From positions 1,470 to 65,469 of the forward strand of contig CAZKVR010000005.1 in the NCBI GenBank assembly GCA_964556395.1: a stretch of 64,000 bases of DNA, read 5' to 3'. The translations under genes and the position numbers were made by a program. The stretch comes from an uncultured Methanosarcinales archaeon (lineage in GTDB: Archaea; Nanobdellota; Nanobdellia; Woesearchaeales; WJKR01). Below the pieces are notes generated by a model, which did not search any database, had not been told where the DNA came from, and saw only the letters and a program-made list of their open reading frames with translations. Positions 38,457 to 60,286 of this stretch are shown here, piece by piece. The number at the start of each line of letters is the position of its first letter. Within the stretch, counting starts at the first letter, position 1.

Positions 38457-39233
38457 ATGACGCTGCCACCGGAGAAACGACGGTTTTTTCGGAAGCTCTA
38501 CGGCGAGGGCTTGTCGATGCGAGCCATCGCGCGGAGGGAGGAGGTAGCGGTGGCTACGATCAAGAAGTATCTTCTTCTCTCAGGCGTCGAGGTGCGTGAG
38601 AGGAACATCGTCCGACACTTGGTATGTGATGATGAGCGCCTGATAGGGACCTACTGCGGTTTGTGGGCCGGGGATGGCAGCCAGTATTATGACAAGGGCT
38701 ATCGTGTCAAGTTTTGCTTGCATTCGGGGAACAAGGAGCTCATCAAGTTCGTGCAACTGGTGTTGAGGAAGCTTTTCGGCAAAGAGAGCCGGTTCACCCA
38801 TGACCACGGCAAGTACAGCGGCTTTGTCATCTTCAGTTCAAGGTTCATCTTCGAGTTCGTCAAGGAGTACCTGACCTATAAGAGGTACAAGACGAAGACA
38901 GTGAGGTTGAAGAGGGATGTTAACCGATACTCTTTCGCGTTCCTTGAGGGTTTCTTCTTGGGGCTGATGCTTTCTGACGGCCATCTGAGACATAAGGTCC
39001 AGTACAATTCGATCTCAGCCGGACTCATCGCGAACGTCATCGAGGTGTTGTGGCTTTTCGGCATCACCGGACCGTTGAGCATTTCAGACAGGTCCAAGTA
39101 CGGATGGAACGACCTGTTCTGCCTCTCCTTGGGCAAGAAGCAGACGCTCGAGGCGGAGATGCTGCTTGATGAGACCTTGAGGAAGATTGGGTATGGGAAA
39201 CCTTTCAGGGAGCTCAAGGGCGTGTTCAGGTGA
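38457..39233 (+). CDS. LAGLIDADG homing endonuclease with N-terminal HTH
   Basis: Two LAGLIDADG motifs (YCGLWAGDGS, FLGLMLSDGH), N-terminal sigma-70 region-4-like HTH; lower GC and distinct codon usage versus flanks. Confidence 0.7.
   Translation: MTLPPEKRRFFRKLYGEGLSMRAIARREEVAVATIKKYLLLSGVEVRERNIVRHLVCDDERLIGTYCGLWAGDGSQYYDKGYRVKFCLHSGNKELIKFVQLVLRKLFGKESRFTHDHGKYSGFVIFSSRFIFEFVKEYLTYKRYKTKTVRLKRDVNRYSFAFLEGFFLGLMLSDGHLRHKVQYNSISAGLIANVIEVLWLFGITGPLSISDRSKYGWNDLFCLSLGKKQTLEAEMLLDETLRKIGYGKPFRELKGVFR
38457..39233 (+). mobile_element. free-standing homing endonuclease gene insertion
   Basis: Atypical composition, sits between truncated helicase and tRNA pair. Confidence 0.5.
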
Positions 39234-39244: not shown

Positions 39245-39318
39245 GTGGGCCCGCCGAGATTTGAACTCGGGACCTCATGATTATCAGTCATGCGCTCCAC
39301 CAGGCTAAGCTACGGGCC
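39245..39318 (-). tRNA. tRNA-Ile(GAT)
   Basis: Full cloverleaf traced: GGGCCCG acceptor, anticodon stem CATGA/TCATG loop CTGATAA, T-arm CCGAG TTCAAAT CTCGG; no CCA encoded. Confidence 0.85.
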
Positions 39319-39322
39319 CATA

Positions 39323-39337
39323 AGGACGCCTCCGGCC
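39323..39337. repeat. 15-nt direct repeat GGACGCCTCCGGCCG duplicating the tRNA-Asn 3' acceptor end plus 3 flanking nt (att-like remnant)
   Basis: Identical to 39377-39391. Confidence 0.5.
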
Positions 39338-39379
39338 GATATCCTCAGGTTTCCCTTTGGGACCGGCCTTTGGCTTTGG

Positions 39380-39488
39380 ACGCCTCCGGCCGGGTTCGAA
39401 CCGGCGACCTTGCGGTTACGGTCCGCCGCACAGCGATGGTCGCTGCGGGCTGTTAACAGCCGCACGCTCTACCGCTAAGCTACGGAGG
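39380..39488 (-). tRNA. tRNA-Asn(GTT) with 37-nt intron after position 37
   Basis: Acceptor GCCTCCG/CGGAGGC, D-arm GCTT AGCGGTA GAGC, anticodon stem TGCGG/CCGCA, loop CTGTTA|intron 39416-39452|A, T-arm GCCGG TTCGAAC CCGGC. Confidence 0.75.
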
Positions 39489-39679
39489 CTCAACCCCGAT
39501 GGATTGACGGCGCATTTATAAAATTAACTGATGGGTGGTGGTGAGCGGAAACCGTGCGCGTCCGACACCGAGCAGGAGCGACAGCATATAAGCCTGCCGC
39601 TCTCCAGCCTGACACGCGTGAGGAGTTACAAAACGAAACATATATAAAACAGCGGCGTGAGAACAACAGCCTGGTGTGA

Positions 39680-43233: not shown

Positions 43234-45231
43234 GTGGTATTGCGTATGGATAGGGTGTTGCTGGGTTCCTCCTTGGTGTTCGTCGCGCTCTTGCTCTTGG
43301 GTGGGGGCGTCCTCTTCCTGGAGGGTCAGGATTCGTTGGAGTTCCCGTTCACGGGCCAGGCTACTGATAGCTTCCTCTTCTTGTGCATCAATGATCCTCC
43401 TAGTTTGGAGTTCTCGTGTCCGGATACGATAAACCAGACTACGCGGGTGACTGATAACACGGTGACCTGTCAGTTGAACGCTTCCGATCCTGATAATGAT
43501 TCGTTGGTTCTTTCCGTGGGTCCTGGTAACTTGTCGGAGTGGGCTTGGATCAATGACTCTGGCTGGTTGTGGTTGCGTCCGCGCCAGGATCAGGTCGGTG
43601 TGAATGGTTTGACGGTCTCCGCCCGTGACGCTTCCGGCTGCGCCAACGGCCTCGTCGAGGAGGAGTATGAGCTTACGGTCCTTGACATCAATGATCCTCC
43701 GGAGTATTTCAAGACCATCCCTGATGTCGAGTTCATGCAGGGGAGCAGTTCGTCTCCTTACACGTTGTATGATCACTTCCGGGATCCTGATCGCGACCCG
43801 TTGTCGTTCGAGGTTTTCGGCACTGACGTGGTGTCCGCTTCTGTCAATCCTGATAGTGGTATGGTGAACTTTAGGGCTGATGATGATTGCGGTACTGATT
43901 ACTTGTTGTTCCGGGCGACGGATCCTTTTAATGCTTCTGCTGAGAGCGATGTCGTCCAGGTCAAGGTTATCTGTAAGGAGGATCAGGAGTCCGGCGGTGG
44001 CGGCGGTGGCGGCGGTGGTTCGTTCTCGCCTTGCACTCCGAAGTGGAAGTGTGATGATTGGTCTGAGTGCTTGCCTAATGGTACGCGGTACAAGGAGTGT
44101 ATCGATTTGAATGGTTGTAATCCTAATGATTATGAGCGTACGTTCTGGGAGAACTGCACGTACGTCCCGACTTGTTCTGATGGCATCCAGAACCAGGGTG
44201 AGGAGGGTGTCGATTGCGGCGGGCCGTGCCCGCCTTGCGGTACGTGCTTCGATGGCATCCAGAACAATGATGAGGAGGGTGTCGATTGCGGTGGTGAGTA
44301 TTGCGAGCCTTGTAAGAATTGTTCTGATGGCATCCAGAATTGGGGTGAGACCGGGGTCGACTGCGGCGGGCCGTGCCCGCCTTGTCCTTCATGCTTCGAT
44401 GGCATCCAGAACCAGAATGAGACCGGTATCGATTGCGGCGGGCCGTGCCCGCCTTGCGCTGTCGAGGAGTCTCCCGGGATCGCTGAGGAGCAGTCGAATG
44501 TGACCTTGTTGCTTATGGTGTCGGGCGGTTTCTTGTTGGCCTTGCTCATTCTCTTCCGGTTGTATCACCGTCAGATCGTGAAGGCTGTGGCTCGTCTCGG
44601 CGTCGTGTTGACGCGTCATAAGCGTAAGCAGGTGTTGTTGTCCAAGGCTGAGAAGGAGTCGTTGTTGGCTGGTATCATCTCGTTGGAGGCGAAGCTTGAG
44701 GAGCGTACCGAGCCTGCGAGTTCTCTCTTGGAGTCTCTTACGTTGTTGTCCCGTTCGTTTTTCAGGTTCGCGTTGGACTTGGTGGAGTCGTTCCAGGCTC
44801 CTGACATGGAGGGGGCTTTGAAGGAGCTGGTGAAGCATCGTTCGTTGCGGAAGGTGTTGGAGCGTTTCTTCGTGGTGACGCGGACTGCGGAGCAGGCTGT
44901 TGTCGAGCATTCCTATGTCGAGGTCGAGTTGTTCTTGGAGGAGTTGCGTCTGCTTGTCTTTGAGACCAGCGATGCTTCTGCTGAGGACCTGGTCCATGAG
45001 GCTAAGGAGAAGGATGTTTCCGGTTCGGTGTTGGAGCGTTGTTCGGCGGCGTTCTTCGACGTGTTGTTGGCGTTGGAGTTCGAGGAGTTGGAGTCTGCGC
45101 GTCAGCGGTACGTCCAGCTCGTCGCGGCGTATGAGGAGTTGCCTGAGGGTCGTAAGGCTGAGGTGTACGATCGCGTCGTGCGGGCGTATCATCATCTGAA
45201 GTATGCTTATTCTTGGTCTGATAGGGGTTGA
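43234..45231 (+). CDS. type I membrane protein with cadherin/Ig-like modules, poly-Gly linker, four tandem Cys-rich repeats, TM and ~240-aa cytoplasmic helical tail
   Basis: Signal/TM N-terminus; INDPP motifs; repeat units C[SF]DGIQN..E.G[VI]DCGG.C.PC x4; TM VTLLLMVSGGFLLALLILF; acidic N-glycosylation-sequon-rich ectodomain. Confidence 0.5.
   Translation: MVLRMDRVLLGSSLVFVALLLLGGGVLFLEGQDSLEFPFTGQATDSFLFLCINDPPSLEFSCPDTINQTTRVTDNTVTCQLNASDPDNDSLVLSVGPGNLSEWAWINDSGWLWLRPRQDQVGVNGLTVSARDASGCANGLVEEEYELTVLDINDPPEYFKTIPDVEFMQGSSSSPYTLYDHFRDPDRDPLSFEVFGTDVVSASVNPDSGMVNFRADDDCGTDYLLFRATDPFNASAESDVVQVKVICKEDQESGGGGGGGGGSFSPCTPKWKCDDWSECLPNGTRYKECIDLNGCNPNDYERTFWENCTYVPTCSDGIQNQGEEGVDCGGPCPPCGTCFDGIQNNDEEGVDCGGEYCEPCKNCSDGIQNWGETGVDCGGPCPPCPSCFDGIQNQNETGIDCGGPCPPCAVEESPGIAEEQSNVTLLLMVSGGFLLALLILFRLYHRQIVKAVARLGVVLTRHKRKQVLLSKAEKESLLAGIISLEAKLEERTEPASSLLESLTLLSRSFFRFALDLVESFQAPDMEGALKELVKHRSLRKVLERFFVVTRTAEQAVVEHSYVEVELFLEELRLLVFETSDASAEDLVHEAKEKDVSGSVLERCSAAFFDVLLALEFEELESARQRYVQLVAAYEELPEGRKAEVYDRVVRAYHHLKYAYSWSDRG
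43993..44018 (+). repeat. (GGY)n simple sequence repeat encoding 9 consecutive Gly
   Basis: ggcggtggcggcggtggcggcggtggt within 43234 gene. Confidence 0.6.
44173..44463 (+). repeat. four tandem ~72-75 bp coding repeats (Cys-rich module CxDGIQNxxExGxDCGGxCxPC)
   Basis: Near-identical tgttctgatggcatccagaacc...gattgcggcgggccgtgcccgccttg units; off-frame ORF-track translations (e.g. 44111-44503) show the same periodicity. Confidence 0.75.
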
Positions 45232-45261
45232 ATGGTTGTCAGAAGCGGAAGTTTTTTATAG

Positions 45262-45340
45262 CAGAGAGTTAAGTTAATATACTATAGTTAGCTAAAAAAA
45301 CTAACTTTAATAAGTTAACTAAGTTAGTTAAGTTATATTT
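45262..45340. promoter_or_regulatory. AT-rich operator-like array of AGTTA(A/G)/TTAACT half-sites and palindromes upstream of tandem RHH genes
   Basis: gttaagttaa, palindrome agttagctaaaaaaactaact, taagttaactaagttagttaagtta; TATA-like gttatattt ~20 nt before GTG 45356. Confidence 0.45.
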
Positions 45341-45355
45341 TTGGTGTGGAAGACC

Positions 45356-45490
45356 GTGGCCAACATCAACATCAGCATCCCAGAAGACCTGCACCGCAAC
45401 CTTAAAATAAGGGCTGCGACAGAAGGCAAGAGTCTGAAAACAGTAGTGCTGGAAGGCCTGAAGAGGAAGCCGCAGAGGAGAAAGGCATGA
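45356..45490 (+). CDS. ribbon-helix-helix (CopG/Arc-like) DNA-binding protein 1 (GTG start)
   Basis: 44 aa; ANINISIPEDLHRNLKIRAATEGKSLKTVVLEGL classic RHH beta-strand + helices; not in ORF track (<60 aa). Confidence 0.6.
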   Translation: MANINISIPEDLHRNLKIRAATEGKSLKTVVLEGLKRKPQRRKA

Positions 45491-45627
45491 CGAACATCAA
45501 CATCAGCATCCCCGACGACCTCCACAAAGAACTCAAAGTAGCCGCCGCCATAGAAGAGAAACCGCTCAAGACAGTGGTAGTAGAGCGATTGGAAGCGCAC
45601 GCAAGGAAGAGAGGTGGCGGCCGATGA
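45487..45627 (+). CDS. ribbon-helix-helix DNA-binding protein 2
   Basis: 46 aa; TNINISIPDDLHKELKVAAAIEEKPLKTVVVERL paralog of RHH-1; ATGA overlaps with both RHH-1 stop and downstream giant gene start. Confidence 0.6.
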   Translation: MTNINISIPDDLHKELKVAAAIEEKPLKTVVVERLEAHARKRGGGR

Positions 45628-48600
45628 ACAAGAACCGCCTGCTAGCGACGCTAGCAGCAGCCCTTGTCATCCTCACACCCCTCCTCACAGGGTTGAGCAT
45701 GGACGAAGGACCCTTCATCGACTCCAAGACCACGACCGAGGACGAGCTCGAGTGCGCCTGGACCGGCTCTCCAGACACGACAAGCCAGAACGCGACGTGG
45801 TACAACGGGAGCACGGTCCACACAGGCCCGAATTCCATCTCATTAAGCCAGAACAAGAGCTCGATACCGTCGTACACCGCGAGGAAAGACGAGAACTGGA
45901 CCTGCGAGGTGACGCTCTCGAACGGCACGGCCACGGAATCTCTCAACACCTCGGTCGTCATCAAGAACGCGTTGCCCACGGCACCGAACGCGACCGACGA
46001 GACGCTCTACGAGGACCAGACCCGAGAGATCAAGGTGGAGAGCACGGACGCCGACAACGACACGATACGATACTCCAAACTATACGAATCAGAACCAGCA
46101 TACTGTGAGATCGGAGAATACACCGGAATTATAACCTGCGACCCCACCGAGAGCGACATCGGAGTCTCCAACGCGACCTGGCTCGCCAGCGACGGCGACT
46201 CGGACTACATCGCGAAAGCGAACGTCACGTACACGGTCATAGAAGTGAACGACCCGCCTACGGCGAGCGTCGAGGACCAGGAAGTGCTGGAAGGGGAGAC
46301 GTTCCGGTACAACATCACCGCCACGGACGAGGAAGACCACTTCCCCATAGACTTCACCGTGGAGAGCAACCTGTCCTCCGTGAACTACACGGTCCTCGAT
46401 GACAACGAGGTGCAGGTCTACCTGGGAGACGACGGGGTTGCGACCTATGCCGATGTGGGCACCTGGTGGATCAGGATCAACATGACGGACAACGGCCCGT
46501 CCTCAAACACACCCTACGATGATCCGAACGGCACCGCCACGTTCAACCTCACCGTCAACAGCACCAACCACGCCCCGAACATCACGACCGACTTCGAGAC
46601 CTACGATCCGGAAGGAGTGCAAGGCGAGGAGTTCGTGTTCGACGTCAACGCGACCGACATCGACGAGACGGACGCGCTCGTCTTCGGCATCACGAGCAAC
46701 TGCAGCCTCTCGAACCCGTGGAGCATCGACACCATCAACGGGAGCGCCTCCAACGCCTCAGGAAGGGTGAACGAGACGCTCACCAACAGCCACGTGGCGT
46801 GCAGGTGGGTGAACGTCACGGTCTCGGACGACGAAGAGACCACATGGGAAGCCGTATTCCTCAACCTGACAAACACGAACGACCAGCCGGCCATCCATGA
46901 GGAGAGCTTCTACTCAAGCAACAACGGCGGCGACAACATGAGCAACCTCACGACGGTGAAGGGACGGGAGTTCTGGTACCGCGTCAACGCGACCGACCCC
47001 GACGAGCTGACCTACGAAGACGAGACCCTCACATTCAGCGACAACAGCACGAACGACATCGCGGTCAACGAGACGACCGGCGTCGTCTCCTTCACGCCCG
47101 ACGACAGCCACATCGGAAACCACGTCATAAGGGTGAACGTGAGCGACGACGACGGCGCGTGGGCGGCCCGCGACCTCCACCTAGAGGTGAAGAACAACAC
47201 CGCCCCCCAACTGCAACCGCTCGGCAACGTCACTTGCAAGCAGGACGAACAATGCGAGGTGTTCGTAGAGGCGTACGACCCGGACCCTGCCGAGAACCTC
47301 GAATTCACGAGCAACAACACAGAGGTCTTCCCGCTCTCAGACTACAACGAGACCGCCCGCGTAGTCGACTACACCCCGACGAACAGCGACGTAGGGACCT
47401 ATAGGGTGAACGTGACCGTCGAGGACAGGTACGGCTTCACGGACGTGGAAGAGTTCACCTTCACCGTCAACAACACGAACGACCCGCCTTCACTACCGGA
47501 AGTCGACTTCGGCACGGTCGTGGCAGACCACCCGGTCAACATGATCGTGGAAGTATCGGACCCTGACGTGGATATCGGATTGGACAACCTCTCCTACAAT
47601 TGGGAGTTCCTCAAGGACGACCAAGGCCTGAACGAGACGTTCGCCTTCATCGACGAGGGGAATTCGTCCTTCACCATAGGCTTCACGCCGGACGCCAGCC
47701 ACGTCGGCACGTACTGGGTCAACCTCTCGGTGACCGACATCGGGAACCTGACCGACTGGGAGAACGTGTCTTTCGAGGTGTTGCCGAAGACCTCGTCGCC
47801 AGAGGTCGAAGGAGTCATGCCGTACTGGAACGCCTCCGCCAACCGGACCGAACTGGACTCGTTCGGCAACGCGTCACTGTTCACTGACCGAACGGTGGCT
47901 GTCAACGTGTCCGAGAACATGAGCGTGGCTTATGATGCTCTCATCACGAACGACACCGGCATCGAGAACAACTCCCTCACGTACGAGTGGTTCGTCGATG
48001 GAGAACCCAATAAGACCTTGACAGGCGTGGAACCGGGCGCGAACTCGTCTATAGAGATCCCGTACGGCTTCTTCGACGCGGGGGACCACGAGGTCGTCGT
48101 GAGGGCGACCGACGAGCGTTATGCGACGGTGAACTGGACGTGGGACGTCACGGTGGCTGACGTCAACAGGCCTCCAGAGCTCCGCAACCCGCTCGACAAC
48201 GTGACGCTGAACACGTCCACGTCGATATCGCATTACATGAGCTACCGTTATGGGAAGGTAGACAACAAGTCCGAACGGCTCCAGCTCTTCTACGACCCTG
48301 ACGACGACCTCGACGGCGACGGCAAGCGAGGAGAGGACACCGGAGAAGGCACCAACCTGTCGTACAGCATCACGCCGGAATACGACTGCTCGGTAGCCTC
48401 TATCTCGCACTCCGGAGACGACCTGGACCTCAAGCCGAAAAAGGAGGGGACGTGCATCATCAAGTTCCGGGCGACGGACCCCGCGGGCGAGTTCGTCGAC
48501 AGCAACAACGTGTGGATCACGGTGACGAGCGTCCAGGTCGAGGAGACCGAGACGCCGGTGAGCTCCGGCGGCGGCGCGACGAGACCCCGTCCGATACCCT

Positions 48601-49310
48601 ATCCTTTCGAGGAGCCTGTGGAGTCGCCTTACCCTATCGAGCTGATAACCCCTGAAGAGGTGTTCTCGTACGTCAACGAGTCTGTCGAGGTGCCATTGTC
48701 ATTGGCGAACACGTGGAACGAGAGCCTCACGGACGTGACGCTCAACGCGACGACGGAGAACTCGTCGAACAACCTCAGCTTCTCGTTCTCGGAGAGCTAT
48801 TTCCCCACCTTGGCGACAGGCGAGAACCATTCGGTCACGCTCACCATAGATGGGTATCGCCAGGAGGGGCCGTTGTCGGTGATAGTGTCGGCGAACGTCG
48901 AGGACCCTGAGTATGAGGATTCCACTACTATCATGATCAACGCGATGGAGCAGAAGCAGTCAGGGGATGATGTGGAGAGCAGGGTGACGTTCGCCCGCGA
49001 CCTGTTGAATGAGAATCCTGAGTGCCAGGAGCTGAACGAGCTGCTCAACGAGGCTGAGAGGAAGCGTCAGCAGCAGGAGTACGACGAGGCTATAAAGCTC
49101 GTCAACACTGCCGTGGACGGTTGCAAGTACCTCGTCAACCACGAGAAGGAACCGACGACAGAGGAGCCCAAGTCATTCTTCACGGTCATGACGTTGGGTC
49201 CTGACCAGTTGCCGGTGCTCATCATAGGTGCGGCCATCATACTCTCGCTGCTCGTGTTCGGGATCATGATGATAATCTCGGGGCGGCGCGGCGGCAAGTA
49301 CGACATCTGA
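45624..49310 (+). CDS. giant (1228 aa) cell-surface adhesin-like protein with multiple cadherin-like repeats and C-terminal TM anchor
   Basis: N-terminal signal/anchor, recurring VNDPP/NDQPA/NHAPN/NDPPS cadherin-type motifs, very acidic, dozens of N-x-[ST] sequons, C-terminal LPVLIIGAAIILSLLVFGIMMIISGRRGGK. Confidence 0.6.
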   Translation: MNKNRLLATLAAALVILTPLLTGLSMDEGPFIDSKTTTEDELECAWTGSPDTTSQNATWYNGSTVHTGPNSISLSQNKSSIPSYTARKDENWTCEVTLSNGTATESLNTSVVIKNALPTAPNATDETLYEDQTREIKVESTDADNDTIRYSKLYESEPAYCEIGEYTGIITCDPTESDIGVSNATWLASDGDSDYIAKANVTYTVIEVNDPPTASVEDQEVLEGETFRYNITATDEEDHFPIDFTVESNLSSVNYTVLDDNEVQVYLGDDGVATYADVGTWWIRINMTDNGPSSNTPYDDPNGTATFNLTVNSTNHAPNITTDFETYDPEGVQGEEFVFDVNATDIDETDALVFGITSNCSLSNPWSIDTINGSASNASGRVNETLTNSHVACRWVNVTVSDDEETTWEAVFLNLTNTNDQPAIHEESFYSSNNGGDNMSNLTTVKGREFWYRVNATDPDELTYEDETLTFSDNSTNDIAVNETTGVVSFTPDDSHIGNHVIRVNVSDDDGAWAARDLHLEVKNNTAPQLQPLGNVTCKQDEQCEVFVEAYDPDPAENLEFTSNNTEVFPLSDYNETARVVDYTPTNSDVGTYRVNVTVEDRYGFTDVEEFTFTVNNTNDPPSLPEVDFGTVVADHPVNMIVEVSDPDVDIGLDNLSYNWEFLKDDQGLNETFAFIDEGNSSFTIGFTPDASHVGTYWVNLSVTDIGNLTDWENVSFEVLPKTSSPEVEGVMPYWNASANRTELDSFGNASLFTDRTVAVNVSENMSVAYDALITNDTGIENNSLTYEWFVDGEPNKTLTGVEPGANSSIEIPYGFFDAGDHEVVVRATDERYATVNWTWDVTVADVNRPPELRNPLDNVTLNTSTSISHYMSYRYGKVDNKSERLQLFYDPDDDLDGDGKRGEDTGEGTNLSYSITPEYDCSVASISHSGDDLDLKPKKEGTCIIKFRATDPAGEFVDSNNVWITVTSVQVEETETPVSSGGGATRPRPIPYPFEEPVESPYPIELITPEEVFSYVNESVEVPLSLANTWNESLTDVTLNATTENSSNNLSFSFSESYFPTLATGENHSVTLTIDGYRQEGPLSVIVSANVEDPEYEDSTTIMINAMEQKQSGDDVESRVTFARDLLNENPECQELNELLNEAERKRQQQEYDEAIKLVNTAVDGCKYLVNHEKEPTTEEPKSFFTVMTLGPDQLPVLIIGAAIILSLLVFGIMMIISGRRGGKYDI

Positions 49311-49512: not shown

Positions 49513-51162
49513 TTATCCGTGCCTTTGGAGTAGTTCGTAGAGGCGGTTGACCTGTTCGTAGTACGCGTGCTTGGCGTGCTCCGGCAGGGCGTGGTAGCGT
49601 CCGATGAGTTCCTTGTAGGTGCTCTTCGCCTCGTCCGTCCGACGCTCTACGATGAGCCGCTCGACCGTCGTGACGAGCTGTTGGAGGGTGTCCGCGGTTC
49701 CTACCTGGCCCTGTTGCGTGGGCGCTTGCTGTTGCGGTTCCGGTTGTCCTCCTTGCTGCTGTGCTTGCTGGGGCTCGTCGGAGTGTATGACGTCGTCCAG
49801 CTGGTGTGCTAGGGCGTCGAGGTCTTGCGAGAGCTGTCGTTCGTCCTCGCCGAAGTAGAAGTCATGTGATCGCTCTGCGTGCGGCCGGGCCTCGAGCGGT
49901 TGCTGCTCGGCCTTTTCCGAAGGTGCGGACTCCTCTGCGGGCTTCTCGCTCGTGGCGGGTTGCACTGATGGTTGCGGTTGAGGCTTGTCATCAGTCCCGC
50001 TCAGGGGTTGCTGGCCTTCTTGCGCCGCTTCCGAAGATGTCTCTGCAGACGCTTCCTGTCCTTCGTCGGGGTGGCCGGCGCCGTCTTCGCGGCCTGTGTC
50101 GTCGGGGTCTTCAGCCCATCCGGCGCTGGCGCCTGCGGCTTGTCCTGAGTCCTGCTCGTCTTGTTCGGGGTCTGCTTCTTCCGGGAAGAGCGATCCTGGT
50201 GAGCCAGTCTCTTGTCGTGACGCTTCTGGTCGGTCTTGAGGAGTCGCCTGTTGCGGCTGGTTCTGTCGTTCCTGTGACGACGAGGGTTGTCCTGGCGCCT
50301 GTTGTTCTTGTGAGGGTTGACCTGGTGACTCCTGTGAATGTGATTGCGCGGCCGGTTCTCCGGGCAGGTCGGGTAGTTGGAAGCCGTCCTCGGCCTCTTG
50401 TCCTCCTTCGCCTTGCTCAGCCTGGTCTGCGTGCGGCTCTTGCGGTGGCTGCTTGTGGGGTTCGGGTACGTCGAGCTCTTCGGCAGACGGGCGTTCCTGT
50501 GACCCTTGGACGGGTGTCGACTCGCCCGGCGCAGAGGATGCGCCCTGTTCTTCCTGCGGCGTTTCCTGCATGGAAGGCGGGACTTGTGATGGCTTCTCTT
50601 GTTGCTGGGCTTGTGGCGGCTCTTCCTGCGGAGAGTGTTGTTGCGCCGGTGTTGGTGCCTGGCTCTCAGGAGCCGGCTCGGGCACTGCGGGTTCTTCAGG
50701 CGTCGCCTGGGCTGCGGCTCCAGTCGCTTCCGCTCGCTGGCTTGATTCCTTCTCGCGCGTCGCTTTCGTAGTCTCCGTGCTTGCTGCGGATGGCGCCTGC
50801 TTCACCTCCGGCCCCTTTCCGTTGCCGAACAGTTTCGAGAGGAATCCCTGTTTCTTCTCTGAAGGCGACTTGATGAGCGCGTCGACTAGTTTGGAGAAGG
50901 TGGAGAGGACTTGCTGCAGCGTCTCCTGGGGCATCTCCTCGTCCTTGTACTCGATGGTGCTGAAGTCCCTGAGGAGCTTGTAGACGTTCTCCCTCAGTTT
51001 CTTCTCGATGTACACCTTGTCTAGTTCCTTGACGAGCTCGTCGAACGTGAACTCGTAGTGGGCGTGGAGGTATTCCTTGAAGAACTCTTTTATGAGCCTG
51101 TAGACCTCGAGGTCCTTGAGCGAGCGCTTGCTCTGCAGATATGCTATCTTCTTCTGCGTCAC
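49513..51162 (-). CDS. hypothetical protein with folded N- and C-terminal domains joined by ~330-aa Pro/Gln/Glu-rich disordered region
   Basis: 549 aa, no signal peptide, low-complexity PQE-rich core; poly-T terminator downstream (49495-49505 on minus strand). Confidence 0.4.
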   Translation of the reverse strand: MTQKKIAYLQSKRSLKDLEVYRLIKEFFKEYLHAHYEFTFDELVKELDKVYIEKKLRENVYKLLRDFSTIEYKDEEMPQETLQQVLSTFSKLVDALIKSPSEKKQGFLSKLFGNGKGPEVKQAPSAASTETTKATREKESSQRAEATGAAAQATPEEPAVPEPAPESQAPTPAQQHSPQEEPPQAQQQEKPSQVPPSMQETPQEEQGASSAPGESTPVQGSQERPSAEELDVPEPHKQPPQEPHADQAEQGEGGQEAEDGFQLPDLPGEPAAQSHSQESPGQPSQEQQAPGQPSSSQERQNQPQQATPQDRPEASRQETGSPGSLFPEEADPEQDEQDSGQAAGASAGWAEDPDDTGREDGAGHPDEGQEASAETSSEAAQEGQQPLSGTDDKPQPQPSVQPATSEKPAEESAPSEKAEQQPLEARPHAERSHDFYFGEDERQLSQDLDALAHQLDDVIHSDEPQQAQQQGGQPEPQQQAPTQQGQVGTADTLQQLVTTVERLIVERRTDEAKSTYKELIGRYHALPEHAKHAYYEQVNRLYELLQRHG

Positions 51163-51340: not shown

Positions 51341-52348
51341 ATGTCTGATCCTTTCGAAGGAATGCAGGCTGAGGATCTGCAAAAAGAGGTGGAGAAGTAT
51401 CAGCGAAAGTTCGCGCTGATCAGGGCTGAGATCGGCAAGGTCGTCGTCGGCCAGGCGCACATCGTGGACTCGCTCATCGAGGCGTTGCTGTGCAACGGCC
51501 ACGTGCTGTTGGAAGGCATCCCAGGATTGGGCAAGACATTGCTGGTGCGTACGTTGTCGAAGATCACCGGCTCGTCGTTCTCCCGTATCCAGTTCACGCC
51601 TGACTTGCTACCCACCGACATCATCGGTATCACGACGTACGAGGAGGGGAAGGGCTTCTACACCGTCAAGGGCCCTATCTTCGCGAACTTCGTCCTGGCG
51701 GATGAGATCAACCGCGCCCCTCCCAAGGTGCAGTCCGCCTTGCTGGAGGGCATGCAGGAGCTCCAAGTCACCATCGGCAAGGAGACTTTCAGGTTGCCGT
51801 TTCCGTTCTTCGTCATGGCGACCGAGAACCCGGTGGAGCAGCTCGGCACGTATAAGCTTCCCGAGGCGCAGCTCGACCGCTTCTTGTTCAAGCTCAACAT
51901 GGTGTACCCGACGTTCGAGGAGGAGCTGAAGATATTGACGCAGAACATCACGACGAGCCAGTTCGACGACTACAACCTCTCGCCGGTATTGTCGCCTGAG
52001 GAGATAATCCGTGCGCAGCACCTCGTCAAGCACATCCGCCTGGATGAGAAGATCGAGAAGTACCTCGTCCGCATCGTCGAGGCTACGAGGAAGCCTGACA
52101 AGTACGACCTCGAGATGGGCAAGTACGTCAGCTTCGGTAGCTCTCCCCGTTCGAGCATCGCGTTGTTCATAGCTTCCAAGGCGCACGCCATCATGAGGGG
52201 TAGCAGCGTGGTGACGCCGAGCGATGTCAAGGCGGTGGCGCACAACGTGCTGCGTCATCGTATCATCCTCAACTTCGAGGGGCAGGCTGAGGAGATCGGC
52301 ACGGATCCCATCATCGATGAGATCCTGAAGAAGGTCCCTATAGTGTGA
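51341..52348 (+). CDS. MoxR-family AAA+ ATPase
   Basis: VVVGQAHIVDSLIEALLCNGHVLLEGIPGLGKT Walker A region and MoxR-specific spacing. Confidence 0.9.
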   Translation: MSDPFEGMQAEDLQKEVEKYQRKFALIRAEIGKVVVGQAHIVDSLIEALLCNGHVLLEGIPGLGKTLLVRTLSKITGSSFSRIQFTPDLLPTDIIGITTYEEGKGFYTVKGPIFANFVLADEINRAPPKVQSALLEGMQELQVTIGKETFRLPFPFFVMATENPVEQLGTYKLPEAQLDRFLFKLNMVYPTFEEELKILTQNITTSQFDDYNLSPVLSPEEIIRAQHLVKHIRLDEKIEKYLVRIVEATRKPDKYDLEMGKYVSFGSSPRSSIALFIASKAHAIMRGSSVVTPSDVKAVAHNVLRHRIILNFEGQAEEIGTDPIIDEILKKVPIV

Positions 52349-52366
52349 GGGGCTGGTGGTTTTCAG

Positions 52367-53269
52367 ATGGGTGTCAAGGATTTACGCGTTGAACTCACGC
52401 CGCATATCCGTAACGCGGAGATCTTCGCGAAGCGTTCCGTCCTGTCCAAGACCATCACGGGAAATTGGGTGACGAGCTATAAGGGTCGCGGCATCGAGTT
52501 CGCCGGCTACAGGTCTTACCAGTTCGGTGACGACGCCTCCCTGATCGACTGGAGGGCTTCGTTGCGTGCCAAGGAGCCCATGGTGCGGGAGTTCGAGGAG
52601 TACAAGAGCTTTTCCGTGTTCATATTGCTCGACGTCTCGAACAGCATGCTGTTCTCCTCTAACAAGAAGCTGAAGGCGGAGTACGCGGCTGAGATGGCGT
52701 ACGCGTTGGGCGAAGGTATCCTGCGCGGCGGCGACGCCGTCGGACTCGGCATGTTCACGGACGAGCTGAAGGCGAGCCTCCATCCGAACATCGGCCATGG
52801 CGTGCTGGATCGCTTCGCGCAGCACCTCAAGGATCCTTCGATGTATGGCGGGAAGTTCGACCTGCAGCGGGTGTTGAAGCAGACGGTGTCGTTCCTGCAG
52901 AACAACGCTATCATCATAGTCATCTCCGACTTCCTCGGGTTGCAGGAGGGGTGGCAGCGGTACGTGCGTATGGTGTCGCAGAACTTCGAGATGATCGGCC
53001 TCATGGTCCGCGACCCCCGCGACAGGGAGTTGCCGCGGCACGTCGGCCAGTACGCGTTGGAGGATCCTTATTCCGACAATACGTTGTACATCGATGTGAA
53101 TGATTTCGCAAAACCCTACAAGCGCTTCGTCGAGGAGGAGGAGCGCAGGATTATGAACGTGTTCGAGAGCGTGAAGGGCGGGATGGCGCTCATCACGACC
53201 GACAAGGATTATCTGGCGCCGCTCACCAAGTTCCTGCGGCAGAGGAAGTTCATCACCATGACGACGTGA
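52367..53269 (+). CDS. DUF58 domain protein (MoxR partner)
   Basis: Canonical position after MoxR; DUF58 ILLDVSNSM degenerate vWA-like motif. Confidence 0.7.
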   Translation: MGVKDLRVELTPHIRNAEIFAKRSVLSKTITGNWVTSYKGRGIEFAGYRSYQFGDDASLIDWRASLRAKEPMVREFEEYKSFSVFILLDVSNSMLFSSNKKLKAEYAAEMAYALGEGILRGGDAVGLGMFTDELKASLHPNIGHGVLDRFAQHLKDPSMYGGKFDLQRVLKQTVSFLQNNAIIIVISDFLGLQEGWQRYVRMVSQNFEMIGLMVRDPRDRELPRHVGQYALEDPYSDNTLYIDVNDFAKPYKRFVEEEERRIMNVFESVKGGMALITTDKDYLAPLTKFLRQRKFITMTT

Positions 53270-53275
53270 AACAAC

Positions 53276-54235
53276 ATGCACCTGACGTTCGAGAACCCTA
53301 TCTATCTCTGGTACCTGGCCAGTATCCCCTTGCTGGTCCTCACCCACTTCCTCTCTTTACGGATGGCGAAGCGGAAGGCGATGCGGTTCGCGAACTTCCA
53401 GACGTTGAAGCGTATCGCAGGTGAGAGGATGGTGACTAAGAATGTCAGCGTGCTCATCTTCCGAGTCCTCACCGTGGCGTTGCTCGTGTTGGCGGCTTCC
53501 GGTGTCAGGTTGTGGTACATGGCTCCGCAGAGCGATAACAACTATGTCATCGGGCTTGACGTGTCTTCTTCGATGTCGGCTAAGGATTTTTTGCCTGACC
53601 GTCTCGAGACGGCCAAGTCTTATGCTAAGGATTTCGTCGACACGTTGGGCGGCAAGACCAAGGTGGGGGTGGTGTCTTTCGCGGGTGTGAGCATGATCGA
53701 GCAGACCTTGACCGAGGATAAGACTGCTGTCAAGTCTTCGATAGATAGTATCAGTTTGACGAGGACTGGCGGTACTGACATGCCAGGAGCCCTCATTACT
53801 GGCACGAACATCCTCTTGTCCGAGCCTGACAATGGGAGGGTGATGATTCTGTTTACGGATGGCAGCTCGACGCTAGGTAATTTCGTCGGTGATTCCATGC
53901 GCGAGGCGGTCGAGTATGCGCGTGAGAACAAGGTCGTGGTGAACGGCGTCGGTATCGGCACCGAGAGCGCTCCTATCGGCTACTTGCCCGAGTATTATAA
54001 CATCTCGTCGGTGTTCGCCTTGGATGATCTGCGTTTCGTGACCAACCGTACGTCAGGCGTGACTATCCCTGCGAGCGAGGAGCAGGACTTGGAGGCCGCT
54101 TACGTCGACTTGTTGAAGCGTTCTGATGAGAGCCTCGTGGATGTGCGGCTCGACCTCATGGCGTTGGTGGCCGGCTTGCTCTTGCTGTTCATCGAGTGGG
54201 GGCTCATCAATTCTCGTTATAGGAGGGTTGCGTGA
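53276..54235 (+). CDS. von Willebrand factor A domain membrane protein (BatA-like)
   Basis: Two N-terminal TMs, vWA MIDAS motif VIGLDVSSSMSAKD, C-terminal TM. Confidence 0.75.
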   Translation: MHLTFENPIYLWYLASIPLLVLTHFLSLRMAKRKAMRFANFQTLKRIAGERMVTKNVSVLIFRVLTVALLVLAASGVRLWYMAPQSDNNYVIGLDVSSSMSAKDFLPDRLETAKSYAKDFVDTLGGKTKVGVVSFAGVSMIEQTLTEDKTAVKSSIDSISLTRTGGTDMPGALITGTNILLSEPDNGRVMILFTDGSSTLGNFVGDSMREAVEYARENKVVVNGVGIGTESAPIGYLPEYYNISSVFALDDLRFVTNRTSGVTIPASEEQDLEAAYVDLLKRSDESLVDVRLDLMALVAGLLLLFIEWGLINSRYRRVA

Positions 54236-56541: not shown

Positions 56542-57072
56542 ATGCGCGTCTACGACCTCCCCATGGAAAAAAGGCTTCACGAGGCTGTCAAGGAGATGGC
56601 CTTGAAGAGCGGTGCCAAGACGCTCTTCGCTAAGGTGAACGCCATAGCCTTCTTCGAGCCAGAAGAGGTCTCGCTCGACGAGCTTGCGGAGCGCACAGGC
56701 TACTCGCCGGCCTCGATCAGCACGACCGTCAGGGATCTCGAACGTATGGGCAAGCTCAAGCGCATCAAGAAGCCCGGCACCAAGAAGGTGTACGTCAAGG
56801 GCGAGAAGAACCTCATCAAGTCCTTGCACGACCACTTCAACAACGCGTTGGAGAACGTCCTGAAGCCGATGGAGGAGATACTCCCCCCAGCCATCAAGGA
56901 GCTCAAGCAAGAGCTCAAGAACAAGGACCTCGGCAAGGAGGAGAAGGACCATCTGAAGAAGAAGATCAAGTGGTACGAGGAATACCTCGAGCAGAACAAG
57001 CGGGCCAAAGAGATATTCGACAAGATGGGACATGAGTTCAGGAAGCACGAACAGGAGATGGAACGCCCATGA
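56542..57072 (+). CDS. winged-helix transcriptional regulator (MarR/PadR-like) with C-terminal coiled-coil
   Basis: SLDELAERTGYSPASISTTVRDLERMGKLKRIKKPG HTH-wing; AT-rich promoter/operator with repeats upstream (56434-56541). Confidence 0.45.
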   Translation: MRVYDLPMEKRLHEAVKEMALKSGAKTLFAKVNAIAFFEPEEVSLDELAERTGYSPASISTTVRDLERMGKLKRIKKPGTKKVYVKGEKNLIKSLHDHFNNALENVLKPMEEILPPAIKELKQELKNKDLGKEEKDHLKKKIKWYEEYLEQNKRAKEIFDKMGHEFRKHEQEMERP

Positions 57073-57770
57073 CCAAGCAGCAAAGCGTCATCAGGATCAA
57101 GGACGTGTGGAAGACCTACACGATAGGCGACAACAAGGTGCACGCCTTGAGAGGCCTTAACCTAGAGGTCAAGAAAGGCGAGTTCCTCGCCATCATGGGA
57201 CCCTCAGGGTCTGGGAAGAGCACGAGCATGAACATGGTGGGCTGCCTCGACATCCCCACCAAAGGCCACGTCTACCTCGACGGCAAGGACATCTCGGCCA
57301 TGTACGAGTCGGACCTCGCCCAGATACGGGGGAAGAAGATAGGGTTCATATTCCAGAAGTTCAACCTCATCAACACGCTCACGGCCAAGGAGAACGTCAT
57401 GCTACCCATGATGTTCCAGGACGTGCCGCAGGAGGAGCGTTCGAAGAAGGCAGAAATGCTGCTCAGGATGGTGGACTTGCAGGAACGCAAAAACCACCTC
57501 CCTAGCGAATTGTCAGGCGGACAGCAGCAAAGGGTCGCCATCGCACGATCATTGGCGAACGACCCCGAAGTGATATTGGCGGACGAGCCGACAGGCAACC
57601 TCGACACGGCGACAGGCGAGAACGTGATGGGCTTCCTCGAGAAGCTCCACGATGAGAAGGGCACCACCATCGTCATGGTGACGCACGACGAGGAAGTGGC
57701 GAAGCACGCCGACCGGATAGAATTCCTCCGGGACGGCAAGATTGTCAAGACTATGAAGAACAAAAGGTGA
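57069..57770 (+). CDS. ABC transporter ATP-binding protein (MacB/LolD-like)
   Basis: Walker A GPSGSGKST, signature LSGGQQQRVAIARSL, Walker B ILADEPTGNLD. Confidence 0.9.
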   Translation: MTKQQSVIRIKDVWKTYTIGDNKVHALRGLNLEVKKGEFLAIMGPSGSGKSTSMNMVGCLDIPTKGHVYLDGKDISAMYESDLAQIRGKKIGFIFQKFNLINTLTAKENVMLPMMFQDVPQEERSKKAEMLLRMVDLQERKNHLPSELSGGQQQRVAIARSLANDPEVILADEPTGNLDTATGENVMGFLEKLHDEKGTTIVMVTHDEEVAKHADRIEFLRDGKIVKTMKNKR

Positions 57771-57776
57771 GAACCG

Positions 57777-59021
57777 ATGAAGAAAGCATTCGCATTACTG
57801 GTACTGATGGTATTGATGACGACAGGCATGGCGATGGACGCCGCGGCGGCGGACAAGCCCCAACTGGACGTGACACTCCTGAGCTACACGCCAGTCCCGG
57901 CAGAGCCCGGAAACTACGTGACGGTCACGCTGAAGCTTGAGAACAAGGGTGATGCGGCCGCCAAGGATGTGGCGGTGGAATTCGTTGACAACTACCCGTT
58001 CAGCCTTGACGACGAGTCGAAGAAGCGTAAGGAGGTCGGAGAACTCGGCCAGAGCGAGACTTACCTGGCAGAGTATCGCGTGCGTGTGGATAGCAACGCG
58101 GTCGAAGGGATGAACTATCTCAATATCCGTTACGCGCAAGGAAAGACGTCTGACAACTGGGTCGAGAAGAGTATACCTCTGACGGTGAGTACCGTCCGGA
58201 AGACGCTGAGCGTCAACTCCGTAAGCGTGGAACCGGAAGTGGTAGCGCCCGGGAACAGGATGGACATCACGCTCAAGTTGAAGAACCTGGCGTCAAGCCA
58301 CGTCCGCGACGTCGGAGTCAAGCTAGAGCTAGCGGATGTCTCGGCGAACGACCAGGCGTACGACATACCTCTGGCACCTATGGGCTCTTCCATCGAGAAG
58401 CGCATCCCTACCCTCCAAGGCGGTGAGACGGCTGATTTCGGGTTCGCGCTCCAGGCATACCCTGAAGCGGAGGCCGGCATCTACAAGGTACCAGTCACTG
58501 TAACCTACACTGACGAGGATGGCAACGACCAGTCAAGGACGGACATGGTCAGCGTTGTTGTGAACGACGAGCCGGACCTCATGACCGTCATCGACCGTAG
58601 TAGCATCTATAGCGACAAAGGGCGTGGAGAGGTGAGGTTGACCATCACGAACAAGGGGTTGTCGGAGATAAAATTCCTTACAATATTGCTAGGTGAGAGC
58701 GAGTCGTTCGACATCCTCTCCGCTTCGGACGAGTTGTATTTAGGCAACGTCGAAAGCGACGACTACGAAAGGGCGTCATTCGACCTGAGGCTTAAGGAGG
58801 AAGGTGTGGATGAGATAACGCTGCCGGTCACCCTCACGTTCAAGGATGCCATGAATAAGGATTACGAGGTTGAGCAGAACTTGACGCTTGACCTCCTATC
58901 GAACTCGGACGACGGGGAAGGGGATTCCTCGACAGGGACTGTGATGACGGTCATCGTCGTGTTGGCACTGGCCGGTTTTCTCATCTACAGGCGCAGGAAG
59001 TGTCGTAAGCAGAGGCGTTGA
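57777..59021 (+). CDS. secreted CARDB/COG1361-like beta-sandwich repeat protein with C-terminal TM anchor
   Basis: Signal peptide MKKAFALLVLMVLMTTGMAMDAAAA, repeated beta-sandwich modules, C-terminal VMTVIVVLALAGFLIYRRRKCRKQRR. Confidence 0.5.
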   Translation: MKKAFALLVLMVLMTTGMAMDAAAADKPQLDVTLLSYTPVPAEPGNYVTVTLKLENKGDAAAKDVAVEFVDNYPFSLDDESKKRKEVGELGQSETYLAEYRVRVDSNAVEGMNYLNIRYAQGKTSDNWVEKSIPLTVSTVRKTLSVNSVSVEPEVVAPGNRMDITLKLKNLASSHVRDVGVKLELADVSANDQAYDIPLAPMGSSIEKRIPTLQGGETADFGFALQAYPEAEAGIYKVPVTVTYTDEDGNDQSRTDMVSVVVNDEPDLMTVIDRSSIYSDKGRGEVRLTITNKGLSEIKFLTILLGESESFDILSASDELYLGNVESDDYERASFDLRLKEEGVDEITLPVTLTFKDAMNKDYEVEQNLTLDLLSNSDDGEGDSSTGTVMTVIVVLALAGFLIYRRRKCRKQRR

Positions 59022-59062
59022 ACACGCCAAGGATAACCGCATATCGGTGAGCGAGGACTATC

Positions 59063-60286
59063 ATGCTAGAGGACTTTTTCAGGCAGGGCGTGAAGAACCT
59101 GACTAATCGCAGGCTCCGTAGCTGGCTGACCATGATAGGCATCTTCATAGGTGTCGCCCTCGTCGTCTCGCTCCTCAGCCTCGGCCAGGGGATGCAGGAT
59201 GCCATTGTCGGCCAGTTCTCAGACTTGGGAGCTGACACCATCACCATCCAGGCCGCTGGCGGCGGCTACGGGCCGCCGGGGACGTACCAGTCCGTCAAGG
59301 TCACGGAGGACGACCTCGAGGTGGTCAAGAGGACCGATGGGGTCGAGGAAGCGTTCGGTCGGATTATCGGCTCCGTCAAGGTAGAGATCGATGATAAGGA
59401 TGAGTACGGCTATGTTTCGACGGTAGCTGAGGATTCTCGGGAGTACGAGATGTCGGTCACGACGCCTGATGATCTCTCGGCCGGACAGGGACGTCTGATA
59501 GAGCCTGGCGACCGCTACGAAGCGGTGGTGGGCTATCGTCTCGGCCACGAGGCTTTGTACGGGAGAGACTTAGAGGTGGGTGATGACATCCTCATCAACG
59601 AGCAGGATTTCGAGATTGTAGGCGTCCTCGAGAAGACCGGCAACCCGCAGCTCGACAGCATCACATGGCTCATGGAGGATGCGGGCCGGGAAGTGACCGG
59701 CACGGATGAGGCTTATGGGCTCATAGTGGCCAAGCTCGAGCGAGGCATGGACCCTAACGTGGCCAAGGAGCGCTTGTTGGAGGAGTTGCGCGACAGCCGT
59801 GACGTCAAGGAGGGCAAGGAGGATTTCACGGTCACGACGGCTCAGGAGACCATCGAATCGCTGAACTCCATCCTAGGCGCTGTCAAGTGGTTCCTCATCG
59901 GCATCGCCGCCATCAGCCTCCTCGTCGGCGGGGTTGGAATCACGAACACCATGTACACTTCGGTCTTGGAGCGTACGCGCGAGATCGGCATCATGAAGGC
60001 TATCGGGGCGAAGAACGAGGACGTCCTGACACTCTTCCTCATAGAATCAGGACTGCTAGGATTGGTAGGAGGCCTCATCGGAATCGCCTTGGGGTTAGGA
60101 TTCGCGTTCGCCACCGCGGCTATCGCGCGGCAGGCCCTCGGGGCGGACATCATCAGGGCTCACGTCTCGTTCGGACTCCTGGCAGGGGCCATGCTGGGCT
60201 CGTTCCTCGTCGGTTCCATCGCAGGCTTGACGCCTGCACGGCAGGCTTCGAGGATGAAGCCTGTGGAGGCGTTGCAGTATGGCTAG
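59063..60286 (+). CDS. ABC transporter permease, FtsX/MacB-type
   Basis: N-terminal TM, large periplasmic MacB_PCD-like domain, C-terminal FtsX 3-TM module (GIMKAIGAKNEDVLTLFLIESGLLG). Confidence 0.8.
   Translation: MLEDFFRQGVKNLTNRRLRSWLTMIGIFIGVALVVSLLSLGQGMQDAIVGQFSDLGADTITIQAAGGGYGPPGTYQSVKVTEDDLEVVKRTDGVEEAFGRIIGSVKVEIDDKDEYGYVSTVAEDSREYEMSVTTPDDLSAGQGRLIEPGDRYEAVVGYRLGHEALYGRDLEVGDDILINEQDFEIVGVLEKTGNPQLDSITWLMEDAGREVTGTDEAYGLIVAKLERGMDPNVAKERLLEELRDSRDVKEGKEDFTVTTAQETIESLNSILGAVKWFLIGIAAISLLVGGVGITNTMYTSVLERTREIGIMKAIGAKNEDVLTLFLIESGLLGLVGGLIGIALGLGFAFATAAIARQALGADIIRAHVSFGLLAGAMLGSFLVGSIAGLTPARQASRMKPVEALQYG

Follow-up and report, generated by a model that had tools for sequence, protein, structure and literature searches.

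A ribbon-helix-helix gene pair and a tandem 9-bp repeat array in front of a giant surface glycoprotein gene: a putative self-repressing module of Woesearchaeota-type archaea

We analyzed a 64-kb stretch of archaeal DNA (contig CAZKVR010000005.1; called the window in the following), in which two small tandem genes for ribbon-helix-helix (RHH) proteins, RHH-1 and RHH-2, follow an AT-rich repeat array and lead directly into the gene of a 1228 amino acid (aa) surface glycoprotein, here called the giant gene. The window has a GC content of about 58% and a few AT-rich intergenic islands with TATA-like boxes. The original prediction, made from the letters of the window, had named the tandem RHH genes, the AT-rich array and the coupling to the giant gene through ATGA overlaps, and all of them are present (Table 1). 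Its statement that the RHH genes are unannotated does not hold, as GenBank carries both open reading frames (ORFs) with identical products as hypothetical proteins of a Candidatus Woesearchaeota metagenome-assembled genome (ACLFO2_03750 and ACLFO2_03755). The contrast it drew between the array and a genome of ~60% GC is real, with figures of about 58% for the window and below 30% for the array.

In the ORF list RHH-1 is given as 45341-45490 with a TTG start, but most likely the gene begins with GTG at 45356, because the closest orthologous locus (L001; L-numbers denote the compared loci and P-numbers the family proteins) has a stop codon three codons 5' of the equivalent GTG. RHH-1 and RHH-2 share 60% identity (BLASTP E 4e-16), and tblastn revealed no further RHH copy in the window. 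RHH-1 is without a Shine-Dalgarno sequence in most loci and RHH-2 and the giant gene have one, a pattern that fits a leaderless or short-leader first cistron followed by coupled internal cistrons.

The giant gene encodes a protein with a signal/transmembrane segment (6-26), a C-terminal transmembrane anchor (1193-1222), an isoelectric point (pI) of 4.05 and Big_9, cadherin-like and tandem-95 repeat domains. It contains 63 N-x-S/T sequons, corresponding to 5.1 per 100 aa compared to 0-0.6 in cytoplasmic neighbours, and by these sequence features it is assigned as a surface glycoprotein; no relative with a solved structure was found by sequence. The term adhesin used in the original prediction is unproven, since the signal peptide, the sequons, the Big_9/cadherin-like domains and the anchor fit an S-layer-like envelope glycoprotein equally well.

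A promoter core is predicted 5' of the array, where a T6 run (45252-45257) overlaps the TATA box region and could double as oligo-T terminator of the upstream gene. From the TATA box to the start codon the spacing is 95 nucleotides (nt) in the window. TATA-to-ATG spacing is 26-29 nt in the short versions L023 and L025, and therefore an almost leaderless mRNA is implied there. The second TATA-like element listed in Table 1, which is resembled by a TTATTTTTG element present in L006, may act as an alternative promoter and give rise to a leaderless transcript; it lies closer to the start codon than the usual 22-27 nt, and as it overlaps the last unit of the array the candidate transcription start is uncertain.

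Table 1: Features of the RHH-giant gene locus, given in window positions.
Feature	Position	Strand	Remarks
Stop codon TGA of the upstream gene (665-aa type-I membrane protein)	45229-45231	+	5' edge of the 124-bp intergenic region
Predicted promoter core, purine-rich TFB recognition element (BRE)-like GGAAG and TATA box TTTTTATA (45253-45260)	45247-45260	+	predicted from sequence
Distal part of the putative operator	45267-45306		AGTTAAGTT (45267-45275) and inverted repeat AGTTAG-N9-CTAACT (45286-45306)
Proximal tandem array of the putative operator	45299-45335		about four 9-bp units, AACTAAGTT, general form AANTWASTT; from Tandem Repeats Finder (TRF) and position weight matrix
Second TATA-like T-rich element TTATATTTTT	45333-45342	+	overlaps the last unit, ends 13 nt 5' of the GTG
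RHH-1, 44 aa, GTG start	45356-45490	+	pI 11.0; no clear Shine-Dalgarno sequence; begins VANINISIPEDLH
Shine-Dalgarno-like GAGGAG	45476-45481	+	5 nt 5' of the RHH-2 ATG, within RHH-1 coding sequence; equivalent in L001
RHH-2, 46 aa, ATG start	45487-45627	+	pI 9.4; start overlaps the RHH-1 stop (ATGA, 45487-45490)
Shine-Dalgarno-like GAGGTGG	45611-45617	+	6 nt 5' of the giant gene ATG, within RHH-2 coding sequence; identical in L001
Giant gene, 1228-aa secreted surface glycoprotein	45624-49310	+	ATG overlaps the RHH-2 stop (ATGA, 45624-45627)

The repeat array and its occurrence in other loci

Seven of the twelve AGTTA motifs of the window fall in 45267-45335. TRF reports a period-9 array at 45299-45335 with 4.1 copies and 75% matches, and the inverted repeat of the distal part takes in AACTAACTT (45299-45307). 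Position-weight-matrix sites of the proximal array start at 45299, 45308, 45313, 45317, 45321 and 45326, and the array as a whole holds 7-8 candidate sites. Its best 45-nt segment reaches 25 of 36 matches at a shift of 9, which none of 5000 shuffles of the region did, and the other AT-rich intergenic regions of the window reach 12-21 of 36. The strict form AANTWASTT has three matches in 64 kb, all of them in the array (dinucleotide shuffles give 0.9 +/- 0.7), and motif scans of the 64 kb found no further operator sites outside the array. The only other place in the window with an equal shift-9 score is a run of nine Gly codons (GGGGGGGGG; 43960-44010) in the gene of the 665-aa protein, a trivial period-3 coding repeat.

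Over 18 loci the position weight matrix reads AA[C/n]T[A/T]A[G/C]TT, a 9-bp palindrome, and the spacings between consecutive sites cluster at 4, 5, 9, 13, 14 and 18 bp. Pooled autocorrelation of 13 loci gives z = 11.6 at a shift of 9 and 8.7 at a shift of 18, with further peaks at the half period (4/5). The 60-100 bp 5' of RHH-1 hold the densest cluster of unit-like motifs of the whole locus in 12 of 13 archaeal loci, and such a cluster is missing from a cyanobacterial ParD locus used as control. The array of AGTTAA/TTAACT palindromes described in the original prediction is thus real and non-random, but it does not consist of isolated palindromes: the unit is a tandem 9-bp quasi-palindrome AACTWAGTT, which is present in 2-10 sites depending on the lineage.

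The loci with this arrangement (L001-L015, L017-L023, L046-L048 and L050-L051) were found by exact-protein look-ups and pattern scans; their contigs belong to Woesearchaeota or 'Nanoarchaeota', have a GC content of 0.28-0.58 and were counted once if duplicated. A giant orthologue of 28-78% identity directly follows the RHH gene(s) in 16 distinct loci, and the combination of TATA box, array, RHH(-RHH) and giant orthologue recurs in 16 distinct DPANN loci. The small ORFs are thus conserved together with the RHH-RHH-giant arrangement, and repeated sites are found in the regions in front of them, both of which the original prediction had left to be looked for in other genomes. Even the order 665-aa membrane protein, RHH, RHH, giant, 549-aa protein (on the opposite strand) and MoxR-DUF58-BatA/VWA is shared by L001, L010, L011 and L012 and, in part, by L015, and a gene of the 665-aa type takes the same upstream position in L004, L008, L010, L011, L012, L015 and L047. 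An overlap of RHH-2 and giant gene of 4-17 nt is kept in 12 of the 15 loci with both genes, and the junction between RHH-1 and RHH-2 ranges from a 14-nt overlap to a 102-nt gap. Two loci (L009 and L013) have a shorter protein of 387-394 aa in the giant slot, and L005 has one RHH gene followed by the giant gene.

A single RHH gene without a giant gene occurs in L025/26/29, where it is followed by the gene of a 124-aa membrane protein, and in L049, where it lies beside adenylosuccinate lyase. These single genes keep the TATA box and the units upstream. As the array accompanies RHH genes also without the giant gene, it appears to belong to the RHH proteins as their operator rather than to the giant gene, and this is the strongest comparative argument we have. 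Its position is similarly constant: 18 of 22 loci have a consensus TATA box (TTTAAATA, TTTATAAA or TATATAAA) that either overlaps the first unit by up to 5 nt or precedes it by up to 19 nt, and the units therefore span the region from the TATA box to the predicted transcription start and beyond. From such a position archaeal repressors block the assembly of the pre-initiation complex (see also PMC5569661).

A viral or mobile origin was considered and dismissed: a scan of IMG/VR gave 15 RHH relatives, all of other subfamilies, without the NINI strand and in unrelated contexts, with no upstream motifs in 13 of them and two scattered matches in each of the other two. One locus with the full RHH-RHH-giant module (L014; CAYWRI010000028.1, GC 0.28) is labelled 'uncultured Methanosarcinales archaeon'; its module and its composition make a mis-binned contig of DPANN origin probable.

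The RHH proteins and their possible pairing

From their sequences RHH-1 and RHH-2 can be placed in the MetJ/Arc/CopG superfamily by fold class, and the RHH identity claimed in the original prediction is corroborated by sub-threshold Pfam matches, profile matches to the PDB, an AlphaFold2 model and a Foldseek search, all of which point to RHH proteins. Matches in Pfam are FitA-like_RHH with 26.0 bits (cut-off 27), ParD with 24.8 (27.3), RHH_5 with 20.4 (26) and RHH_1 with 16.5 (20.5), and further sub-threshold matches are Omega and HicB, the latter only in the RHH part of the model (positions 19-43 of 51). By fold class both are RHH proteins, yet no named Pfam family includes them at its threshold. 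The family profile finds an RHH antitoxin (7e4j), omega (2bnw/1irq), a CopG-family protein (9kkd) and ParD in the PDB with E-values of 0.004-0.009. Residues 2-8 of RHH-1 form the beta-strand, followed by two helices and a basic tail, and the AlphaFold2 model (predicted local distance difference test, pLDDT, 78) shows an extended segment 1-9 and helices 10-23 and 27-36. Foldseek matches of this model are nearly all RHH proteins (TM-score 0.6-0.7, probability about 0.9), with StnY, Arc, CopG and VapB at the top of the list and AvtR further down; their E-values of 0.2-4 are weak because the protein is so short.

The strand follows the pattern x-N-I-N-I-S-I-P in 30 family sequences, with N3 and N5 invariant or nearly so and hydrophobic residues at the positions of I4, I6 and I8. 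In RHH-1, N3, N5 and S7 would face the DNA. A profile search found 888 cluster representatives at E <= 0.001, and the 150 of them that are listed are mostly 40-60 aa long. The RHH-2 orthologue P0006 (L001:411-551) has been named 'type II toxin-antitoxin system HicB family antitoxin' by NCBI, which is probably an over-annotation that will propagate, since the HicB match lies only in the RHH part and no HicA is encoded nearby.

One family member, P0012, is a 102-aa fusion of two RHH domains with a Pro-rich linker (L046:275-583, on a contig of Logan SRR22388270), and its gene lies 3' of a TATA box and units and 5' of a giant-family gene. It served as stand-in for the RHH-1/RHH-2 pair in modelling. 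The single-sequence model predicts a pseudo-dimer with strand-helix-helix twice (DSSP E2-9 and E56-63; pLDDT 78, predicted TM-score 0.65). In structure it is matched best by TraY, AvtR and VirC2, which are tandem-RHH proteins of one chain, and by single-chain Arc. As P0012 rests on a single short contig it may be an artefact of assembly or frameshift. In many lineages position 7 of the strand also differs by slot, with S/T/I in slot 1 and E/Q/K/S in slot 2. Both the fusion and this slot-specific residue favour a heterodimer, and RHH-1/RHH-2 would thus most likely form the DNA-binding unit as a heterodimer, with homodimers being possible.

The loci with a single RHH gene (L005, L025 and L049) and the near-identical, recent duplicate pairs (94% in L015, 89% in L017) speak against an obligate heterodimer, and neither a neighbour-joining tree nor the identity table gives a clean split into slot 1 and slot 2. 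The shortness of the sequences and the recent duplication of some pairs leave slot orthology ambiguous. Between the two 89% identical copies of L017 (L017:626-701) a direct repeat GATTAGAGTATAA is found twice instead of the usual units, and the 94% identical copies of L015 are 63 nt apart; judged from sequence, both pairs look like recent duplication or gene conversion of an RHH gene.

Probable auto-repression of the operon and the alternatives

We consider it probable that the locus is a self-contained module of transcriptional feedback, specific to the lineage of Woesearchaeota-type DPANN, in which the RHH pair acts on the array to auto-repress the surface-protein operon. A dedicated local control module, as the original prediction had suggested, is also the best reading of the data, in which array, RHH genes and giant gene are conserved together. 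In the proposed model a single promoter with the TATA box at 45253-45260 would drive an operon of RHH-1, RHH-2 and the envelope glycoprotein, whose three genes would be translationally coupled via the ATGA overlaps and the internal Shine-Dalgarno sequences. The RHH paralogues would pair, and their two-stranded beta-ribbon (N3, N5 and S/T7 of each chain) would read AACTWAGTT, with several dimers loading cooperatively side by side on units 9 bp apart. The array runs from a few bp past the TATA box across the predicted transcription start to the start codon, and once bound it would block the assembly of TBP, TFB and RNA polymerase or promoter escape. As the repressors come from the surface protein's own mRNA, the operon would repress itself and hold its output at a set point, and the output would climb when growth dilutes the repressors.

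Several observations weigh against this model. All Pfam matches of the two proteins stay below the curated cut-offs, and the Foldseek E-values suffer from the shortness of the protein. With a spacing of 95 nt between TATA box and start codon the array may be largely transcribed, acting as a roadblock or as part of a 5' untranslated region (5'-UTR), or a second, weaker promoter (45333-45342) may be used. The array of L015 is degenerate and the sites of L018 lie upstream of the TATA box. Moreover, RHH proteins can also activate, as described for CdrS on ftsZ2 (PMC7439475).

All five alternative explanations that we considered are less likely than auto-repression. The RHH genes could be orphan type II antitoxins, remnants of the ParD, HicB or FitA-like type that came to lie beside a surface-protein gene by chance; the sub-threshold matches to these families and the HicB name of P0006 speak for it, as does the N-terminal strand MTNINISLPD shared by bacterial ParD proteins (L016, L027, L028 and L030). 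Those bacterial look-alikes, however, are 85-99 aa long and without an array, and L027 has an overlapping downstream ORF of 104 aa in the position of a ParE-type toxin, whereas no toxin gene adjoins the RHH genes in any archaeal locus and their neighbours in the window are the 665-aa membrane protein and the 1228-aa secreted protein. The family proteins are 41-64 aa long and have no toxin-binding C-terminal domain, with only a basic tail of 6-10 residues after helix 2 in RHH-1 and RHH-2, the HicB match is confined to the RHH part, and the same chromosomal neighbours are kept at 28-78% identity of the giant protein, the opposite of how mobile toxin-antitoxin systems behave. We therefore regard such remnants as extremely improbable, and the antitoxin or copy-control background from which the original prediction started finds neither a toxin nor a replicon context here. 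A partition or architectural role is similarly hard to credit, in which omega-, ParG- or ParR-type RHH proteins would polymerise on the array as on a centromere. It is typical of omega/parS that small RHH proteins bind contiguous short repeats lying in mixed orientation (PMC9499535), and omega is among the best sequence matches; but the cluster encodes no ParA/Walker ATPase partner, the sole nearby ATPase being the MoxR AAA+ protein of the MoxR-DUF58-BatA operon, and in 18 of 22 loci the array lies between TATA box and RHH start codon. This explanation overlaps with auto-repression, since omega itself is also a transcriptional repressor.

The remaining alternatives concern the array itself. 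It could be a generic promoter, curved DNA or the site of another factor, with the RHH proteins acting elsewhere in the genome, and indeed other intergenic regions of the window are AT-rich with TATA-like boxes and the site scan covers only 64 kb of the genome. We hold this to be unlikely, because these other regions stay well below the array in their shift-9 score (12-21 against 25 of 36), the strict motif occurs nowhere else in the window, the array is palindromic and periodic like RHH operators and is kept 5' of RHH genes with different downstream genes (L025 and L049), and the nearly invariant N3 and N5, which are predicted to face the DNA, match the conserved core of the unit. Less likely still, and quite improbable in our opinion, is an action of the repeats in RNA, where a structured or protein-binding 5'-UTR would control how RHH-1 and the genes after it are translated: if the upstream TATA box is the promoter, the transcript in the window would include about 70 nt of the array, and the inverted repeats can form hairpins with a minimum free energy of -20 kcal/mol (z = -2.0), but in five other loci the folding z-scores are -0.7 to -1.4 and the predicted structures differ, L023 and L025 keep the sites almost without a leader, and the units are symmetric on double-stranded DNA as expected for dimeric DNA binders. 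The phase-variation-like on/off control proposed in the original prediction, i.e. a phase-variable or bistable adhesin switch by repeat slippage or inversion within the array, could build on the tandem 9-bp array with inverted repeats inside a promoter, on the variation between 2 and 10 units among lineages and on the surface location of the giant gene product. We found, however, no simple-sequence tract, invertible segment or recombinase gene adjoining the module, neither recombinase nor invertase being encoded among the neighbours and TRF giving only the imperfect 9-bp array and the codon repeat. Few and imperfect (75%) repeats are poor substrates for slippage, the TATA-to-start distance of L001 (107 nt) is close to that of the window (103 nt) despite sequence drift, and a repressor co-transcribed with its target would lead to negative feedback and thus to graded homeostasis and not to bistability. 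Such a switch is therefore most improbable.

As a more far-reaching and tentative idea, it might be possible that the RHH pair and the 9-bp array form a dedicated device by which Woesearchaeota set the dosage of their main envelope (S-layer-like) or host-contact glycoprotein. If true, the level of the repressors, which are made together with the surface protein and stay in the cytoplasm, would 'count' surface-protein synthesis and match envelope production to growth; for an uncultivated DPANN archaeon, the locus would then be the first cis-regulatory circuit specified in full, read from sequence alone, and its promoter and repressor pair might be reused as a genetic part in these organisms. 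Irrespective of this idea the module is complete, conserved and experimentally tractable, with two easily synthesised 5-kDa proteins, a defined 9-bp unit and a single obvious target. Among the surface glycoproteins encoded at the locus this target is the largest, and it likely determines envelope structure or host contact. The module also puts right a database practice, in which family members are named 'HicB family antitoxin' although they appear to be chromosomal regulators without a toxin, and the fusion P0012 would represent a 'Rosetta stone' case for two small paralogues acting as one DNA-binding unit.

Known systems and neighbouring genes

The finding extends known biology and does not overturn it, because RHH auto-repressors acting on tandem operators are well known. 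Like CopG of pMV158, Arc and Mnt, of which CopG and Arc are among the top Foldseek matches, RHH-1 and RHH-2 consist of only about 45 aa of strand-helix-helix, and as in those systems the regulator gene is proposed to come first in a self-repressed operon with the downstream gene and the operator to overlap the core promoter, with several dimers binding cooperatively. They differ in a sub-threshold sequence likeness, an archaeal TATA/BRE promoter, a pair of paralogous genes where those systems have one, a longer operator array built of 9-bp units and a chromosomal giant glycoprotein gene in place of a plasmid or phage gene for replication or lysogeny. In the case of MetJ small RHH dimers polymerise on contiguous tandem 8-bp metboxes. 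Omega of pSM19035 binds contiguous 7-bp heptads in direct and inverted orientation (PMC9499535). The proposed arrangement of small RHH dimers on contiguous short tandem units is the same, and omega, as mentioned above, is also among the best sequence matches; in contrast to both, the 9-bp unit has a dyad symmetry of its own, there is no co-repressor domain or known ligand and no ParA partner, and the regulon would be a single promoter as far as the 64-kb window shows.

The nearest archaeal architecture, although only an analogous one, is found in cdrL-cdrS-ftsZ2 of Halobacteria and cdrS-ftsZ2 of other archaea, where RHH genes precede a structural gene and are co-transcribed with it, with a widely kept synteny (PMC7439475, PMC8406309). 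CdrL binds only the promoter of this operon (PMC7439475, PMC8406309), and CdrS has been reported as absent from DPANN (PMC7439475). One or two small RHH genes 5' of a non-regulatory gene on an archaeal chromosome are common to both, but the downstream gene encodes here a Big_9/cadherin-like surface protein and not an FtsZ2/tubulin homologue, CdrL has an extra zinc-ribbon, CdrS is an activator with a wider regulon, and no repeat array has been described there. The archaeal RHH repressors SvtR and AvtR bind cooperatively to repeated sites, repress themselves and compete with TBP/TFB. SvtR of SIRV1 spreads along the DNA, and its targets of repression are its own promoter and the gene for a large structural protein, that of the tail fibre (PMC5569661). 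AvtR, TraY and VirC2 carry two RHH motifs per chain as does the fusion P0012. Unlike the genes described here, which are two separate, cellular and syntenic ones, SvtR, AvtR, TraY and VirC2 are viral or plasmid-borne with imperfect inverted-repeat operators. We found no paper in the literature that ties RHH proteins of Woesearchaeota or DPANN to surface-protein genes, and since most DPANN are uncultivated their gene regulation is almost unexplored. What sets the locus apart from the known systems is the distinct RHH subfamily below the Pfam thresholds, the paralogue pair with its natural fusion, the tandem 9-bp dyad unit and the coupling to a giant glycoprotein gene within a chromosomal cluster that is deeply conserved in DPANN.

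The genes on both sides of the module, which are syntenic with it in several loci, may encode cytoplasmic partners of the same envelope system. The upstream 665-aa protein (43234-45231, + strand) has Big_9, four Cys-rich GIQNxxExGVDCGGPCPPC repeats and a cytoplasmic tail of 220 aa, and the downstream 549-aa protein (49513-51162, - strand) is cytoplasmic with a very long acidic, Q/P/E-rich low-complexity middle part. Both share the C-terminal motif A+xxYxxLxxxYxxLPExxKxxxYxxVxRxY with 39% identity over 31 aa (E 0.006). They are followed by an operon for a MoxR AAA+ ATPase, DUF58 and BatA/VWA proteins (51341-54235, + strand), which takes the same place in L001, L010, L011 and L012 and may serve the neighbouring surface proteins as a chaperone-like MoxR-VWA system. 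A second operon with envelope functions that starts with a small regulator lies at 56542-61499 (+ strand) and encodes a MarR-like winged-helix regulator, an ABC ATPase, a CARDB/DUF11 surface protein and MacB/FtsX-type permeases.

Rfam found only tRNAs in the window (four matches). Two of them, with 109 nt (39381-39489, - strand) and 101 nt (16612-16712, + strand), have lengths that fit archaeal tRNA genes with introns; the first escaped ARAGORN, which gave the second as a tRNA-Pro of 87 nt. The gene of a LAGLIDADG/HTH protein (38457-39233) adjoins the tRNA pair at 39246-39489 (- strand).

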